Shown one piece after another: positions 1,644-40,800 of a stretch of 64,000 nucleotides of DNA. This DNA comes from a phage. How positions within the stretch are numbered: the first letter of the stretch is position 1; the number at the start of each line of letters is the position of its first letter. A program made the position numbers and the translations under genes. A model generated the notes under the pieces. It was not told where the DNA came from and ran no database searches. It saw only the letters and a list, made by a program, of their open reading frames with translations. Location of the stretch: the sequence record PZ357121.2; one strand, written 5' to 3'.

Positions 1644-1816
1644 TATCCACATAGTACACCGTACAGAGGCTCATTTGAACTTTTAAATCGAATGGGCTTG
1701 TACGTAATAGTTCCTTCGGCTTTAGCTTTATCATAAGACTCTTTAAAACGTCTCATTCTTTCTGCTTTGCCTTTACGGATTTTATCAAAATTTTCAGAAG
1801 TCGGGATGTTCGTCAT
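1643..1816 (-). CDS. hypothetical 57-aa basic protein (below ORF-track size cutoff)
   Basis: hand translation MTNIPTSENFDKIRKGKAERMRRF...; ATG at 1814-1816 with GAGAGGTG upstream. Confidence 0.35.
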   Translation of the reverse strand: MTNIPTSENFDKIRKGKAERMRRFKESYDKAKAEGTITYKPIRFKSSNEPLYGVLCG

Positions 1817-1855
1817 GCATAAGCACCTCTCAGAAAATGCCTAAATCGATTTCTC

Positions 1856-2062
1856 TCATCGTTTCCACCATTTCTTAACTTGAAATGAATCAACCCACAC
1901 GAGTTGTTTTGGATCTGCCTTTACAATAGGCGGACAAATTTCTGTAATAGAACCGTCGTGATATTCCTTTTCGGAAATTTTAACACAAAGAGGACCACCC
2001 AATTTAACGGTGAACCCTGCGTTCAGCTTCAGACGTTTAAACTTTGTTTGAACTAGCGCCAT
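1856..2062 (-). CDS. hypothetical protein
   Basis: ORF track 1856..2077 begins at TTG; first ATG at 2060-2062 gives 68 aa. Confidence 0.4.
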   Translation of the reverse strand: MALVQTKFKRLKLNAGFTVKLGGPLCVKISEKEYHDGSITEICPPIVKADPKQLVWVDSFQVKKWWKR

Positions 2063-2361: not shown

Positions 2362-2571
2362 TTATCTCATTAAATTAAAATAAAAACGTCCATCCTCTTC
2401 AATACAGAACTCATACTCAACTGGAGTCCCATTTATTGAAAATGACACGTCATGTGGGTTCAAAGGGTCGATGTCAAAATTAATTTTAAATTCACGACCC
2501 AACAGTTTTACCAAATAAGGGATTGCTTCGTCAAAAGGTTCTTCTAAGTAGTTAGAGATGTCAATTGTCAT
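2362..2571 (-). CDS. hypothetical protein
   Basis: ORF track 2362..2655 overlaps gene 55 by ~95 nt; internal ATG at 2569-2571 with GAGGA upstream gives 69 aa. Confidence 0.4.
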
Positions 2572-3118
2572 CCTCATATAAAAAATCCAAACTAGGCGAA
2601 TCGCTAACAACTTCCTTCTTTTCAGCCCCAGGAGCTTTATAAGCGGATTCTTCATAATGCGTCATTTTATCGTAGATGTCTTGAATAAACGTTTCATCTA
2701 CCAACGCTACCATATCATCGTCATGACTGTCGTAGACATTATGAACGAAGTAACTATATTTCTTTGCAACTTCCTTACGTTCTTTTTTGATACGTTGGAC
2801 AAAAGCATTAAAACAAGCTCGAGTTATGTATGCATGTGGGTTATTGTACTTAGTTTCGTCGAAATTATGAAGTCCCTTAATAGAGGCTTCAATCCCATCT
2901 GCAATCATCTCCTGCTTCCAAGACTGGGTATATCCTGAAAAGTTGAAACGTTTGGACAGGCCTTCGGCGATAAGCATAATTGCTAAACCGATGGTATCAT
3001 TCTGACGAATAATTTTGTTTGGGTCTTTATTATTTAAGAGCTCCTTTTTCCACTCGATTATAGCGGCGAGAAGCTCTTTATTATTCACATAGTTATTTTT
3101 AGGTTTTTGTTCAGTCAT
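2561..3118 (-). CDS. 55: late-transcription sigma factor gp55
   Basis: 185 aa from ATG at 3116-3118 (ORF track starts at upstream TTG); strong similarity to my recollection of T4 gp55 (NYVNNKELL...[47 protein letters not shown]). Confidence 0.9.
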
Positions 3119-27673: not shown

Positions 27674-27849
27674 ATTATTTCTCTTAAGGTTTGGGCCATT
27701 CCGTGGCACATGTTAGGTCCTTCGACTCGCTATGTAAACCCATTACCGCATTGCGCTCGACCTTATTACAGGTTGGAAAAGGTACATCACTCAGAGGACT
27801 CGACGTTCATGAGGAGAGGTTGCGTTCCCCTTTATTAGACAGGAATTAT

Positions 27850-28110
27850 TTAAGCTTTACCACCAGAAACAATTCCAAAGTTATCAAAATCGTATTCAAT
27901 ATCATCAGCATCCACTTTAGGTCCCGCTACGATGTATGCGATTTCGCGGCGCTTTGCATAGGTATTGATTTCTTTACCGTCACCACCTAAGAAAGAATAT
28001 CCATTACGTTTTAATGAGCCAAAGTCTTCAGCATCACCTGCGAATGCTTTAACTTTAAATTTAGGGCCTTTAACGACTGCTTCTGTGATAAATTCTTGAT
28101 ACGTTTTCAT
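27850..28110 (-). CDS. internal head protein (IP) paralog with N-terminal capsid-targeting sequence MKTYQEFITEA
   Basis: 86 aa from ATG at 28110; N-terminus matches the conserved T4 IPI/IPII/IPIII leader. Confidence 0.6.
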   Translation of the reverse strand: MKTYQEFITEAVVKGPKFKVKAFAGDAEDFGSLKRNGYSFLGGDGKEINTYAKRREIAYIVAGPKVDADDIEYDFDNFGIVSGGKA

Positions 28111-28125
28111 TTTTATGTCCATTAG

Positions 28126-28539
28126 TTAGTAAATTGATTTGCCATAATATTTGTACCAAGACGGCCGTTGAGCAATTTTTTCATCTAAGCGTGCTTGACT
28201 TATCGCAATGGACGCTTCGGACGGGTCATAATTATTACGAAATTCGGCAGGGATGTCGGAAATATCCTGGACTGTCGTGTCCTTGATTTTGAAACCACGT
28301 TTCAAGCATTCAGCGATTAGCTCGATTTGACGTAAACGTAAAAATTCGAGTTTGTCGTAAAAGAATGTTACGTGACCTGTGCCTAAGATAAATGTTGGAG
28401 AGATTTTAAAATCCTTTACACGTTTACCGTTTTGAACATGTTTACGGACTGCACCAAATACGCGTGGTAATTCACGATACTCAGCCATAAGATGTTGGTC
28501 GGCCAGTTCAGAAACAAGTGTTAAATTGATACGGGTCAT
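28126..28539 (-). CDS. denV: endonuclease V (pyrimidine dimer DNA glycosylase) DenV
   Basis: 137 aa from ATG at 28539; very high similarity to T4 endonuclease V ([35 protein letters not shown]...). Confidence 0.9.
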
Positions 28540-28542
28540 AAT

Positions 28543-28596
28543 TTCCTCCAAGTAGTTGATGAATGTATAGTATCAAAGTCCTTGGAGGAAGTAAAC
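28543..28596 (-). promoter_or_regulatory. early-type promoter inside 10-bp inverted repeat TTCCTCCAAG/CTTGGAGGAA; 3' arm is the denV Shine-Dalgarno
   Basis: minus strand GTTTACTTCCTCCAAGGACTTTGATACTATACATTCATCAACTACTTGGAGGAAATTATG. Confidence 0.55.
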
Positions 28597-28597
28597 A

Positions 28598-28879
28598 CTA
28601 TTTTTCTGAAGCGCCTGAAATATATTTTTCAAGACGTTGTTTCATTAGCGAGCCGTTCTTAGCGATTTCTTCCGGTTTATCGCACATACGTAACAAGGCT
28701 TCAAGCTTAGCGATATCGCTGGTACGTTCAAATTTGCGAGTATCTATCTTACTAGCAAGTTCAGAAATACGTGCTAATAGACTTTCAGCTTCAACCAAAG
28801 CTGCACCTAGCTTAGTTGCAAATGTGTCAGTAGCTTCGTTAAGAATAGATTCTGATAAAAATTCACTATATGTTTTCAT
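28598..28879 (-). CDS. internal head protein (IP) paralog with leader [11 protein letters not shown]
   Basis: 93 aa from ATG at 28879. Confidence 0.55.
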
Positions 28880-29364
28880 ATATACGCTTTCCAAGTTCCT
28901 GTTTTAAATGTTGAGATTACGCGTTTCGCGCGATTAGGTGTCTGACGATACCATTTAGATTGGGCTAGATTTACTGCCGCTTCATCCCAACGTTTCTGTT
29001 GAAGCATACGAAGAGAATTAGTAAAACCGGCGACTCCTGCTACACCCATTTGGAAGACCATATTGACCAATGCACACCGACGAACTGCATCTAAAGAATC
29101 ATATACCGGTTTAAGTTTAGCATTACCCAAGATTCCGCGGACGGCTTTATCAACGTCTTCATTAAATAGCTTTTCAGCCTCATCAAGGGTAATTGTACCG
29201 TTGCATTTACGTCCGATCATTCTGTCAAGTTCAGCTTTAGCTACGGCTAAAGACGGATTCTTTGTTACTAAATGACCTATGCCAATCGTCCAAAAGCCTT
29301 CAGTGTCTTTGTATAAAGTCAGTCTAAGACCTTCGTCATTACGAAGCATTTCAAATATATTCAT
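28876..29364 (-). CDS. e: lysozyme (endolysin) e
   Basis: 162 aa from ATG at 29364 (MNIFEMLR); catalytic E11, D20, T26 conserved; roughly 80% identical to T4 lysozyme from memory. Confidence 0.9.
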
Positions 29365-29365
29365 A

Positions 29366-29400
29366 ATACCTCCCACGTTTATAGGAGGTATTTATTACTT
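29366..29400 (-). promoter_or_regulatory. lysozyme regulatory hairpin TACCTCC/GGAGGTA with late-promoter-like AATAAATA and TATAAACG; 3' arm is the Shine-Dalgarno
   Basis: minus strand AAGTAATAAATACCTCCTATAAACGTGGGAGGTATTATG; same architecture as the T4 gene e translational control. Confidence 0.55.
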
Positions 29401-29854
29401 ATAGGAGGGTAGTGAGCACCTTATATAATGATTTGCCCATTACATATTCCCATTGAGAAGGTTTAATTAAAGCGAATGCATCAAATTCAGGAATCTGTCG
29501 TCCGTCTGGGAACGTATGATAGGAATTACAAACACTGTTTCTGAATTGCTCGTGCTCTACAGGGATGGTATATAAGAACAGATGAATATTCTTATTGTCT
29601 GAGTAACGATGTTCACCTAGGTCTTTCAGGAAGGCAGGGTCATATTGTGTAAACCCAGTTTCTTCTTCGCATTCACGAATAGCGGCTTCGATAGGAGATT
29701 CACCGGGCTCGACACGGCCTTTAGGAATATCCCACCGATGAGCTAAAGAACCTTTAGGACGAGAACCAGTTACACGGCCCATGAATAACTCTTTATCTTT
29801 TGTCATGAAGATAATACCAGCTGATAGCTCTTTCACTTTATTTTTCTTACTCAT
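29399..29854 (-). CDS. nudE: Nudix hydrolase NudE
   Basis: 151 aa from ATG at 29854; Nudix box GRVEPGESPIEAAIRECEEETG. Confidence 0.8.
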   Translation of the reverse strand: MSKKNKVKELSAGIIFMTKDKELFMGRVTGSRPKGSLAHRWDIPKGRVEPGESPIEAAIRECEEETGFTQYDPAFLKDLGEHRYSDNKNIHLFLYTIPVEHEQFRNSVCNSYHTFPDGRQIPEFDAFALIKPSQWEYVMGKSLYKVLTTLL

Positions 29855-39142: not shown

Positions 39143-39526
39143 TTAACCTTTATCAACAATAGTATGTGTATGGGCATTTACGATTTGCCACCAGTCAAAA
39201 CTATCGCCAAATCGTTTTGATTTATTGTCTTCAATAATTTGGCGTAATTCATCTTCAGTAGCGGCTTTCGCGATTAAATCAGCATATCCACCACGAGGAT
39301 AATAATTATCACCTGCAAAAAGTAAAAAGTTTGGTTTAATATTATTAAACTCTTCAAGAGTAATAACTTTTCCTGTCGGTTGAACAATCTCTACATATTT
39401 ATATCCTAATTTTTGAGCAGCATCTACTGCTTCAAGCAAAGTATCATGAGCCCATCCAATTTGACAACCTGGCTTTTCAGATGGATTAGCCTGATAATCC
39501 GCGTACACTTTATACATTCTATTCAC
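39143..39526 (-). CDS. hypothetical protein
   Basis: ORF track 127 aa. Confidence 0.5.
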   Translation of the reverse strand: MNRMYKVYADYQANPSEKPGCQIGWAHDTLLEAVDAAQKLGYKYVEIVQPTGKVITLEEFNNIKPNFLLFAGDNYYPRGGYADLIAKAATEDELRQIIEDNKSKRFGDSFDWWQIVNAHTHTIVDKG

Positions 39527-39725
39527 CTTTAGAAATTTTATCCATAACGATAGCGATTAAGCCGATTAGAAATGCTACTACCAATGAGATAGAATTTTCG
39601 GTTGTTGTCAGTAGTCCGCAAATGAATCCTACAAACATCGAAAAACTAAAAGCCATTGAAGCAATTACTACAGCAACATTACGAATCAGTTCAGCGCGTT
39701 TCATTTTATTTCTCCATTTACTCAT
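39519..39725 (-). CDS. hypothetical small membrane protein
   Basis: ORF track 68 aa; two hydrophobic segments. Confidence 0.5.
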   Translation of the reverse strand: MSKWRNKMKRAELIRNVAVVIASMAFSFSMFVGFICGLLTTTENSISLVVAFLIGLIAIVMDKISKGE

Positions 39726-39732
39726 TTGTTTT

Positions 39733-39771
39733 GATAGGACTACTATAACATAGTCCTATCATCATGTAAAC
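39733..39771 (-). promoter_or_regulatory. hairpin-embedded early promoter, family A copy
   Basis: plus strand gataggactactataacatagtcctatcatcatgtaaac. Confidence 0.6.
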
Positions 39772-39773
39772 TA

Positions 39774-40037
39774 TTAAATACCAGCTTCGCGTTTAACATA
39801 ATCGACGTAAGCTTGGATAGCTTTCTTGCTGGTAATTTTTACCTGACCACGACCATTGCCTTCTTTAGAGTTTTTCTTAACAACTACATTACCATCTTTA
39901 ACACCCCATACATGGACGTAAGTACCGATGTTTCGGTCGTAGAACATTGCATGGTCGTTGTTGTAAGAGAATGATTCGTAGTTCTCTGTCAGAGTAGAAG
40001 ATTGAGATTCGGCGATAAATTCTTTATAGGTTTTCAT
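39774..40037 (-). CDS. internal head protein (IPI-like) with leader MKTYKEFIAES
   Basis: 87 aa; capsid-targeting leader; located next to 57B as ipI is in T4. Confidence 0.6.
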   Translation of the reverse strand: MKTYKEFIAESQSSTLTENYESFSYNNDHAMFYDRNIGTYVHVWGVKDGNVVVKKNSKEGNGRGQVKITSKKAIQAYVDYVKREAGI

Positions 40038-40062
40038 TTTATTTCCTTGAGGCTGTTTATTT

Positions 40063-40101
40063 GATAGGATGATAGTAACACACCATCATCCTTATGTAAA
40101 C
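40063..40101 (-). promoter_or_regulatory. hairpin-embedded early promoter, family A architecture with different arms (GGATGAT/ATCATCC)
   Basis: plus strand gataggatgatagtaacacaccatcatccttatgtaaac. Confidence 0.5.
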
Positions 40102-40114
40102 TGTTTTGTGAAAA

Positions 40115-40800
<686 letters not shown>

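Follow-up and report, generated by a model that had tools for sequence, protein, structure and literature searches.

A T4-type internal-protein leader precedes three unrelated cargos at two classical internal-protein loci of a Mosigvirus phage

Three genes in a 64-kb stretch of phage DNA (hereafter the window) encode the N-terminal leader of the internal proteins (Ips) of phage T4, followed by cargos that are unrelated to each other. These genes are designated ipA, ipB and ipC. We infer that their products are probably tagged by a capsid-targeting sequence (CTS), packaged, processed and injected. ipC is a newly recognised internal-protein member and the only one of the three that had not been recognised before. 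The window is of the Mosigvirus type (RB69-like, T4-like coliphage); its identity is 99% to complete Mosigvirus genomes and 99.2% to JK45.

The leader/cargo idea of internal proteins is not new. Repoila is said to have described in 1994 a polymorphic Ip set with diverse cargos behind a conserved CTS, shuffled as cassettes. Cassette shuffling of diverse cargos behind the conserved sequence has also been published by others (Comeau 2007; Rao & Black 2010).

Leaders, gene starts and loci

A six-frame regular-expression scan of the window identified exactly three ORFs that start with MKTY.EF[ILVM]; each lies on the minus strand. The start MKTY.EF[IL].E was common to ipA (27850-28110), ipB (28598-28879) and ipC (39774-40037). 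These are precisely the ORFs listed in the first-pass annotation, which did not give their strand. The looser pattern M[KR][TSN][FY].[EDQN][FY] retrieved no further ORF in the window. The number of leader ORFs expected by chance was ~1.1e-4 from the six-frame residue frequencies, and none was found in 200 shuffles. The ORF list also offers a longer ipA (MDIK-MKTY, from the ATG at 28122) and a longer ipB (MESVY-MKTY, from the TTG at 28894). The RefSeq annotation of JK45 uses the MKTY starts, and neither RB69 nor APCEc01 conserves the upstream ones.

The three genes lie at e-denV and 57B, the two classical sites of internal-protein genes, and their layout is as in RB69. As previously noted from the sequence, the first two ORFs flank denV and the third lies beside 57B. 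The lysozyme gene e is upstream of the denV group, and 57B, then 57A and gene 1, are upstream of ipC. Similar to the window genes, those for T4 IPI, IPII and IPIII are small and are found in the same two loci (e-denV and 57B-tRNA). The order in T4 is e-ipIII-ipII-denV, whereas that in the window is e-ipB-denV-ipA. Gene 21, which encodes the prohead protease gp21, and gene 22 (scaffolding core) are located outside the 64-kb window; both belong to the core gene set that all T4-related phages share (PMC9026906).

The proposed match to the T4 leader was borne out: IPII and IPIII start with MKTYQEFIAE and IPI with MKTFKEF...ITE. The T4 CTS with Tyr4/Phe7 and the [IL]-x-Glu site (Mullaney & Black 1996; Bair 2007; Silas 2025) is common to ipA, ipB and ipC. 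Alignment with T4 IPI, IPII and IPIII by BLASTP revealed similarity at residues 1-11/13(-20) only. The cargos of ipA, ipB and ipC had no BLASTP similarity to those of the T4 proteins, which counts against the reading of the three as injected Ips. The cargo regions also differ from each other, as claimed before: the best E value for any pair with a window ORF was 0.66 in a cargo-only BLASTP. However, the earlier term "paralogs" is too strong for these proteins, because BLASTP similarity is confined to the leader module, the only part that they have in common. A Pfam search found no match for ipA, ipB or ipC.

Gene families and cassette boundaries

ipA (27850-28110, minus strand; 86 aa) lies downstream of denV. 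Its product starts with MKTYQEFITEA, of which the leader MKTYQEFITE (codons 1-10) is encoded at 28081-28110. The predicted gp21 site is ITE/A (the slash marks the cut), and the predicted mature form has 76 aa, 8.2 kDa and a pI of 6.5. ipA matches PHROG phrog_2667 "internal head protein" over its full length (E 9e-22), and "internal head protein" is also the RefSeq annotation of its counterpart in JK45 and RB69. ipA is a member of the RB69 ORF125c family, which already carried this label. Among the 219 phage records with a family member are RB69 ORF125c, VR7, Salmonella S16/STML-198 and Morganella MP1. ipA is 83% identical to the RB69 copy and in the same place after denV. The window carries one of the rarer alleles, to which only 6 of the 219 records are identical at 95% or more, and it starts with MKTYQEF whereas RB69 ORF125c starts with MKMYQEF. 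In RB69 and APCEc01, ipA is followed by two further CTS genes, and precisely these are absent from the window. The conserved 140-nt spacer after ipA had neither an Rfam match nor excess folding energy.

ipB (28598-28879, minus strand; 93 aa) lies between e and denV. Its match to PHROG phrog_3499 "internal head protein" (E 2e-46), its 88% identity to "ip5" of VR25 and its full-length homology to RB51 Ip5 (51% identity over 84 residues, E 1e-26) assign it by sequence to the known Ip5 family. The RefSeq label for ipB is likewise "internal head protein". In addition, 258 phage records match ipB at <60% identity, including T2, T6, RB51 "Ip5" and PST "ipV". The GenBank note of RB51 already connects Ip5 with RB69 ORF127c. 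The 10-residue leader of ipB is followed by /SILNE/A, which gives two candidate gp21 sites, LSE/S (E10, 28850-28852) and LNE/A (E15, 28835-28837), and a predicted mature form of 78-83 aa. E15 belongs to an [LI]-x-E motif that is invariant across the Ip5 family and thus common to ipB and Ip5 of T2, T6, RB51, RB15, RB70 and Yersinia phage PST; position 10 is variable. Two more family-invariant [LI]-x-E motifs were found in ipB, LVE30 and ISE40. Different from Ip5 of Tequatrovirus, which occupies the 57B slot and is ~50% diverged from window ipB, the window and RB69 versions are located between e and denV and overlap the e stop codon.

The ATG of ipB overlaps the stop codon of e (28876-29364, minus strand) in the sequence ATGA, and ipB is translationally coupled to e. 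The ribosome-binding site of e is under an 8-bp hairpin, and near-consensus late-promoter boxes lie just upstream; at the same place upstream of e, T4 has two exact TATAAATA boxes. The lysozyme gene e of T4 is translated late. The coupling, together with this late translation, counts in favor of ipB as a packaged Ip. An early-type promoter (28543-28596, minus strand; GTTTAC at 28596-28591 followed by TACTAT) lies directly after the ipB stop codon. It is accompanied by a 10-bp inverted repeat (28590-28581/28552-28543), whose 3' arm covers the Shine-Dalgarno site of denV. By its sequence, this promoter/inverted repeat may have a regulatory role.

ipC (39774-40037, minus strand; 87 aa) is in the 57B (ipI) slot and was labelled "hypothetical protein" in all 36 phage records. 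Its leader reads MKTYKEFIAE/SQSSTLTE/N, with E10 at 40008-40010 and E18 at 39984-39986, and the predicted mature form has 69-77 aa and a pI of 9.2-9.4. Its match to PHROG phrog_13302, a family of unknown function (E 6e-38), covers residues 16-87 only. Immediately upstream is 57B (40115-40570, minus strand), the anti-CBASS nuclease Acb1 (Pfam PF23474, E 1.3e-58, 197 bits versus a cut-off of 27). The location of ipC next to a known anti-defence gene counts in favor of an injected Ip.

The ipC gene is bounded on both sides by an early-type promoter with a stem-loop. The 5' boundary is marked by the element at 40061-40101 (minus strand), which contains GTTTAC-18 nt-TACTAT and stem arms at 40092-40085 and 40073-40066 and precedes the Shine-Dalgarno site of ipC. 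This element and the 57B-p156 junction of RB69 share 97.4% identity. The leader DNA is 88% identical to that of RB69, the sequence directly after the leader is unrelated, and the identity just past it is 30%. The 3' boundary is a second early-promoter/stem-loop (39731-39771, minus strand; GTTTAC at 39771-39766, arms at 39758-39751 and 39743-39736), which begins two bases past the ipC stop codon. It is 94.1% identical to the RB69 ipI 3' flank, and the identity just before the stop codon is 38%. The ipI slot of T4 has the same promoter/hairpin flanks, and its 5' side has the same layout as that of ipC. Similar to the PeSL cassettes and analogous IP-locus elements, in which early promoters with embedded stem-loops bound genes (Arbiol 2010; Comeau 2014), identity with RB69 breaks exactly at these elements of ipC. 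Different from PeSL, however, the 5' conserved block of ipC runs on through the coding leader. Thus, the CTS is part of the recombination module. Internal-protein genes would therefore be exchangeable cassettes, with a conserved 5' module (early promoter with hairpin, ribosome-binding site and leader) and a conserved 3' module (the next promoter-hairpin), at which homologous recombination could swap, add or remove cargos.

Predicted packaging and processing

In T4 IPIII, Tyr4 and Phe7 are the targeting determinants and [IL]8 and Glu10 serve gp21 processing (Mullaney & Black 1996, as summarised in PMC9026906). According to the same source, the first 10 residues of IPIII suffice for packaging foreign proteins and gp21 cuts after L/I-X-E. 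Tyr4, Phe7, [IL]8 and Glu10 are all present in ipA, ipB and ipC. In the proposed mechanism, each Ip would be made with an N-terminal CTS of ~10 residues, whose Tyr4 and Phe7 would attach it to the scaffolding core while the prohead is being assembled. gp21 would cut after the Glu of [L/I]-x-E, at ITE10/A in ipA, LNE15/A (perhaps also LSE10/S) in ipB and IAE10/S and/or LTE18/N in ipC. The mature proteins of 8-9 kDa would remain in the head with the DNA until infection begins, when they would be ejected into the next host.

Several observations count against packaging or are neutral. T4 Ips are basic, with pIs of 9.0-9.7, and mature ipC has a pI of 9.2-9.4. Different from the T4 Ips, mature ipA (6.5) and ipB (6.3 after cleavage at E10, 8.1 after cleavage at E15) are near-neutral, which counts against these two as packaged Ips. 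The motifs at residues 30 and 40 of ipB also count against it, as they could lead to degradation rather than retention. No exact late promoter TATAAATA adjoins ipA, ipB or ipC. This absence was rejected as evidence against packaging, because the proven ipI, ipII and ipIII genes of T4 also lack TATAAATA. Depletion of internal [LI]-x-E sites was considered as a sign of gp21 exposure and was uninformative for three short proteins (2 sites observed versus 2.4 expected); in a wider set the depletion was only suggestive (z = -1.9). No virion proteomics literature covering these families was found, and the three proteins are not resolved in the data for Morganella MP1 or Shigella SH7.

Possible targets and meaning of the cargos

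The precedent cited in the first-pass annotation, that T4 internal proteins are anti-restriction effectors, is real and now extends to Ip1, Ip2 and Ip3, each of which blocks a different GmrSD type IV restriction enzyme (Silas 2025). Injected Ips would act ahead of any phage gene expression. Similar to Ip1-Ip3, their likeliest role would be that of narrow-specificity inhibitors of host nucleases that attack sugar-modified hydroxymethylcytosine DNA (GmrSD-type type IV). That ipA, ipB and ipC inhibit type IV restriction enzymes is a tentative proposal, possible but somewhat short of evenly balanced. As the DNA of RB69-type phages contains arabinosylated hmC, the nucleases targeted may not be those that T4 meets. 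The same strategy, in which host nucleases are disarmed before or as the DNA enters, is used by DarA/DarB of P1, Ocr of T7 and the SAM lyase of T3. The sequences and packaging route of these proteins, however, are unrelated to those of the window Ips, and injection is not the route of Ocr or of the T3 SAM lyase, which are expressed.

Likeness of a cargo to Ip1, Ip2 or Ip3 does not define inhibitor activity, because the three T4 inhibitors are mutually unrelated. AlphaFold2 on shallow alignments gave pLDDT values of 52.6 for ipC (3 sequences) and 56.0 for ipA (7 sequences), too low to be trusted. A Foldseek search of the PDB with these low-confidence models yielded only matches at E = 1 or above, IPI* was absent among the 50 matches listed, and phmmer of ipC against PDB sequences found no match. 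In a published screen, ip4-10 of T4-like phages showed no reproducible inhibition of 15 GmrSD groups; judging by its number, Ip5, the family of ipB, should have been included. This result excludes little, because GmrSD enzymes are extremely diverse and narrowly matched.

It is unlikely that the three proteins are packaged and injected to act on some other first-response defence or host function, such as nucleases, Abi/TA triggers or signalling. The cargos unrelated to Ip1, Ip2 and Ip3, the lack of a GmrSD target for ip4-10 and the anti-CBASS Acb1 gene beside ipC are in keeping with such a target. Moreover, marine T4-like contigs carry a CTS-like leader before a SAM-lyase domain and, in one contig, before a 2H-phosphoesterase, suggesting that the tag serves several counter-defences. 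The SAM-lyase assignment of this marine family comes from Pfam alone, and no link to solved SAM-lyase structures was found by sequence. However, every Ip with a known target (3 of 3) hits a GmrSD variant.

Very unlikely is a mainly structural role inside the head, in which the proteins would be core or DNA-condensation parts that aid assembly, packing and ejection and have no anti-defence role. In T4, the Ips are abundant basic proteins that associate with DNA and touch its phosphates through their lysines, and mature ipC is basic. This role could apply above all to ipB, as a helical, scaffold-like protein cut into peptides by gp21, since it is predicted to be largely helical and its invariant LVE30 and ISE40 resemble the sites of multiply cleaved core proteins. 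Nevertheless, ipA and ipB are not basic, and all three T4 Ips proved to be anti-restriction factors. Different from structural genes, the Ip loci are hyperplastic: from one close relative to the next, their genes are present, absent or replaced. Nor would a head component be expected to occur also as a leaderless early gene, as the ipC cargo does. Least likely of all is that one or more of the three are not packaged, the leader being a recombination relic and the protein early cytoplasmic only: early-type rather than late promoters flank the genes, ipC relatives function leaderless, leaders do drift (MKTYMNFYQN in an Ip5-like gene of RB69 and MKMYQEF in RB69 ORF125c) and IPIII is active when expressed in the host without its CTS, but each of the 3 window genes retains all four leader residues of mapped function, the leader DNA is 88% conserved with unrelated sequence right after it, the promoter arrangement of the proven T4 Ips is alike and ten CTS residues are enough to package foreign proteins.

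Packaging and injection of all three proteins thus remains the preferred reading, and the ipC cargo adds a comparison with its leaderless relatives. An exhaustive HMMER search of 1.84e9 representatives with the ipC cargo returned only three proteins and no link to any known family. Beyond the 36 phage records, the relatives found in protein sets of 5.8e9 and 1.84e9 were leaderless. The leaderless cargo is a separate gene with an early promoter in both Dhakavirus IME08 and a metagenome contig of T4-like type, and is therefore predicted to work in the cytoplasm early in infection. The existence of these leaderless early genes also indicates that the leader is a portable module, an add-on delivery tag. 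That the ipC cargo represents an unrecognised early-acting counter-defence family with two delivery modes, CTS-injected in Mosigvirus and early-transcribed without leader in Dhakavirus and an uncultured T4-like phage, is conceivable but doubtful.

The gain from this study is modest: the annotation of ipC is corrected and mature N-termini are predicted for all three proteins. In addition, ipC provides a clear case of one cargo both with and without leader. The cargos of ipA, ipB and ipC are orphan Ips and reasonable candidates for the screening strategy that solved Ip2 and Ip3. If the ipC cargo does have two delivery modes, cassette recombination would have captured the leader as a portable "injection tag". 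Genomes of T4-like phages could then be mined by means of MKT[YF]x[ED]F...E/ leaders for effectors that pre-empt host defence, for instance for the abundant marine T4-like phage proteins with such a leader before the SAM-lyase domain. Injected proteins help to decide whether a phage with modified DNA survives first-line nucleases, and hence which strains it can infect, which is relevant to the choice and engineering of T4-like therapeutic phages.

Leader-bearing ORFs at the two internal-protein loci

A six-frame scan of the whole window identified exactly three ORFs starting with MKTY.EF[ILVM], all on the minus strand: ipA (27850..28110; 86 aa, starting MKTYQEFITEA), ipB (28598..28879; 93 aa, with an MKTY.EF-type start) and ipC (39774..40037; 87 aa, starting MKTYKEFIAES). 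A looser leader pattern revealed no further ORF in the window. The chance expectation from six-frame residue frequencies was 1.1e-4, and 200 shuffles gave 0. Two of the three ORFs have longer, upstream starts in the mechanical ORF list. The MKTY starts, however, are those annotated in RefSeq for phage JK45 (99.2% identical), and the upstream start codons were not conserved in RB69 or APCEc01.

In BLASTP, the likeness among the three proteins and to T4 IPI, IPII and IPIII stopped after residues 11–13 (up to 20), and comparisons of the cargos, the sequences after the leader, gave a best E of 0.66 among pairs including a window ORF. The first-pass annotation had described three internal-protein paralogs with a common, T4-like leader and different cargos. 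The ORFs, the match of their leader to those of the T4 proteins and the divergence of their cargos were confirmed; the term paralogs overstates the relationship, because only the leader is common to the three.

The window belongs to Mosigvirus (RB69-like Tevenvirinae), and its e-denV and 57B segments were 99.4% identical to phages mobillu and NicPhage and 99.5% identical to phage ST0, respectively. The order in T4 is e-ipIII-ipII-denV and 57B-ipI, while that in the window, and identically in RB69, is e-ipB-denV-ipA and 57B-ipC. Thus, ipA, ipB and ipC occupy both classical internal-protein loci, flanking denV and next to 57B as first proposed.

ipA matched PHROG 2667, 'internal head protein' (E 9e-22), and relatives occur in 219 phage records; among them are RB69 ORF125c, VR7, Salmonella S16/STML-198 and a distant one in Morganella MP1. 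ipB matched PHROG 3499, 'internal head protein' (E 2e-46), with identities of 88% to 'ip5' of VR25, 51% (E 1e-26) to RB51 Ip5 and, similarly, about 48% to proteins of T2, T6 and Yersinia phage PST. Both are annotated as 'internal head protein' in RefSeq of JK45 and RB69, and a note in the RB51 GenBank record already treats Ip5 and RB69 ORF127c as equivalent. ipB is therefore a member of the named family Ip5, and ipA belongs to an already annotated family. The sole PHROG match of ipC was PHROG 13302 (unknown function), covering residues 16–87, and ipC is a 'hypothetical protein' in 36/36 phage records that contain it. No Pfam match was found for ipA, ipB or ipC. ipC is a new, previously unannotated internal-protein member.

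Predicted processing and route of the proteins

According to a review of Black's work (PMC9026906), residues 1–10 of IPIII are sufficient for incorporation into the head, leader positions 4 and 7 carry targeting and positions 8 and 10 processing, and the prohead protease gp21 cleaves after Glu in L/I-X-E. The gp21 gene lies outside the 64-kb window. Tyr4, Phe7, Ile or Leu8 and Glu10 were present in all three proteins. The predicted cut of ipA, ITE10|A, is its sole [LI]-x-E. Two cuts are predicted near the leader in ipC (IAE10|S and LTE18|N) and in ipB (LSE10|S and LNE15|A). Among Ip5 family members, the residue at position 10 can be E, N or V and that at position 8 is Ala in RB51, whereas Glu15 within [LI]-x-E is invariant. 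Judged from this conservation, E15 is the likelier mature boundary of ipB than E10. A separate caveat is that LVE30 and ISE40 of ipB are also family-invariant, which could mean that the protein is degraded instead of retained.

Between close relatives, leaders drift and cargos are nearly identical, as RB69 shows. The Ip5-like ORF127c (L124, the RB69 locus, 2423-2704, minus strand) starts with MKTYMNFYQNLSLNE|A and lacks Glu6 and Glu10, and ORF125c (1684-1944, minus strand) starts with MKMYQEFIIE. Both retain Tyr4 and Phe7, and ORF127c also retains the Glu15 site.

The best-supported route for the window proteins is the classical one. The capsid-targeting leader would dock them on the prohead core, gp21 would then remove it, and the mature proteins of 8–9 kDa would remain with the DNA, be ejected into the next host and block a first-line defence there. 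The mutually unrelated T4 proteins Ip1, Ip2 and Ip3 each inhibit one variant of the GmrSD type IV restriction system without cross-protection (Silas 2025), which bears out their description as anti-restriction effectors, and IPIII expressed without its capsid-targeting sequence is active as well. Counted against the classical reading, ip4-10 did not reproducibly inhibit any of 15 GmrSD groups, and ipA and ipB are not basic. Structure models had pLDDT values of 53 and 56, with no fold match below E = 1, and a literature search found no virion proteomics for the three families. That one conserved leader precedes many unrelated cargos, which are candidate host-specific anti-defence factors, is the published view.

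Cassette boundaries and expression signals

The segment comprising the end of 57B, an early promoter (GTTTAC-N18-TACTAT) with an embedded 8-bp stem and a ribosome-binding site was 97.4% identical to RB69. The identity was 87.9% for the 33-nt leader of ipC and 30% directly after it. A second promoter-hairpin starts two bases 3' of the ipC stop codon and was 94.1% identical to the RB69 ipI 3' flank, compared to 38% just before the stop. The T4 ipI cassette is built in the same way as that of ipC, and ipB, too, has an early promoter behind its stop codon. A 68-aa ORF (39519-39725, minus strand) with a long hydrophobic stretch, labelled 'putative membrane protein' in some relatives, starts immediately downstream of the second promoter-hairpin of the ipC cassette.

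Seven leader-bearing ORFs were found in the corresponding 16 kb of RB69 versus three in the 64-kb window. Exactly two further leader genes of RB69 and APCEc01, ORF124c (starting MKTYKEFIAESANQ...) and ORF123c (MKTYQEFIAAVTL...), both after ipA in those phages, are missing from the window, and the 3' flank of window ipA is that of RB69 ORF123c (window 27700-27852 versus L124 735-1700). The difference amounts to whole cassettes cleanly gained or lost. Plasticity of internal-protein loci like that between the window and RB69 was reportedly described by Repoila et al. in 1994. Such plasticity, promoter/stem-loop elements at both loci and 'more than 30 known variants' of internal proteins were also described (Arbiol 2010; Comeau 2014). 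Between ipA and the vs.8-like gene lies a non-coding spacer of 140 nt (27710-27849) with about 97% identity to RB69 and an early-type promoter (GTTTAC at 27739). It matched nothing in Rfam and was predicted to fold no better than shuffled sequences (z = +1.4).

T4 e, the lysozyme gene, is translated from late transcripts. In the window, an 8-bp hairpin, ATACCTCC/GGAGGTAT (within 29365-29405, minus strand), covers the e ribosome-binding site, near-consensus late-promoter boxes with one mismatch lie just upstream of it, and the ipB start codon overlaps the e stop codon (ATGA). Therefore, ipB may be made when proheads assemble. In addition, the spacer of the early promoter behind ipB and the denV Shine-Dalgarno site are paired through a 10-bp inverted repeat (within 28543-28596, minus strand). 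Together, these elements point to promoter-dependent control of the translation of e, ipB and denV. None of ipA, ipB and ipC is adjoined by an exact late promoter, and the same holds for the T4 ip genes.

The leader and its cargos in other phages

Scanning IMG/VR for the leader coding pattern identified at least 120 loci with at least 127 MKTY.EF ORFs, of which at least 111 carried the leader (MKTY.EF[ILVMF]) at the N-terminus, followed by at least 57 unrelated cargo clusters. Many were outside enterobacterial phages, and many leader-bearing loci among the matches listed were marine T4-like contigs. For one representative per cargo cluster among these matches, [LI]-x-E after residue 20 was mildly depleted (29 observed versus 39.0 ± 5.2 expected; z = -1.9), while control motifs were not.

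The largest cluster among the matches listed matched the Pfam S-adenosylmethionine (SAM) lyase PF23780 (E 1.6e-18; 67 bits, cut-off 28). This abundant marine family, with 2,225 homologues (including proteins P0010-P0129), sits in T4-like (cyanophage-like) contigs; it is encoded at L068 3967-4464 (plus strand), L045 675-1160 (minus strand) and at least about 25 other IMG/VR loci. Judged by eye, L045 presumably encodes proteins resembling gp46, gp47, gp55 and UvsW (by N-terminal sequence), and L068, from its translations, ones resembling PhoH and ThyX. In front of the highly conserved core, which begins at SS[ML][ST]R (...E|SSMSR...), stands a leader that varies in length and invariably ends in Glu, such as MKTYKEFMQE, MKTFRDFIDDIQE and MKTFQQFIDDIPELDE. 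This leader resembles a T4-type tag that can be cleaved off, here on a member of an anti-restriction enzyme family that may be an injected SAM lyase. Sequence searches found no PDB link for the family. Elsewhere, the leader is followed by DUF6267 (L082) and, at L008 3988-4524, by a 2H-phosphoesterase/LigT domain that weakly matched Acb1.

Only three clusters of the ipC cargo were found by a word search of 5.8e9 proteins and an exhaustive HMMER search of 1.84e9 representatives, in which ipC and the IME08-type and L126 homologues make up the whole family. The Mosigvirus form carries the leader, whereas the Dhakavirus form (IME08, IME341, AnYang) is a 73-aa protein consisting of MK plus cargo, without ipC residues 3–16. 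The IME08 copy (NC_014260; L003 2495-2716, plus strand; 66% identity), which lacks a gene annotation in RefSeq, lies between gene 52 and motA behind its own early promoter (GTTTAC-17-TATTAT). The third form, a leaderless 72-aa protein of the T4-like metagenome contig SRR22022328_33040 (L126 4001-4219, plus strand; 47% identity), lies among replication genes behind a TTGACT-type (sigma70-type) promoter. At the sequence level, the leader is thus a module separable from the ipC cargo.

ipC is directly downstream of 57B (40115-40570, minus strand), which matched the anti-CBASS nuclease Acb1 in Pfam (E 1.3e-58), so the slot is an anti-defence neighbourhood; many records label 57B 'RNA ligase' or 'hypothetical'. 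The same ipC cargo is delivered through early transcription or, where tagged, presumably by injection, an argument for its acting in the cytoplasm of the host right at the onset of infection.
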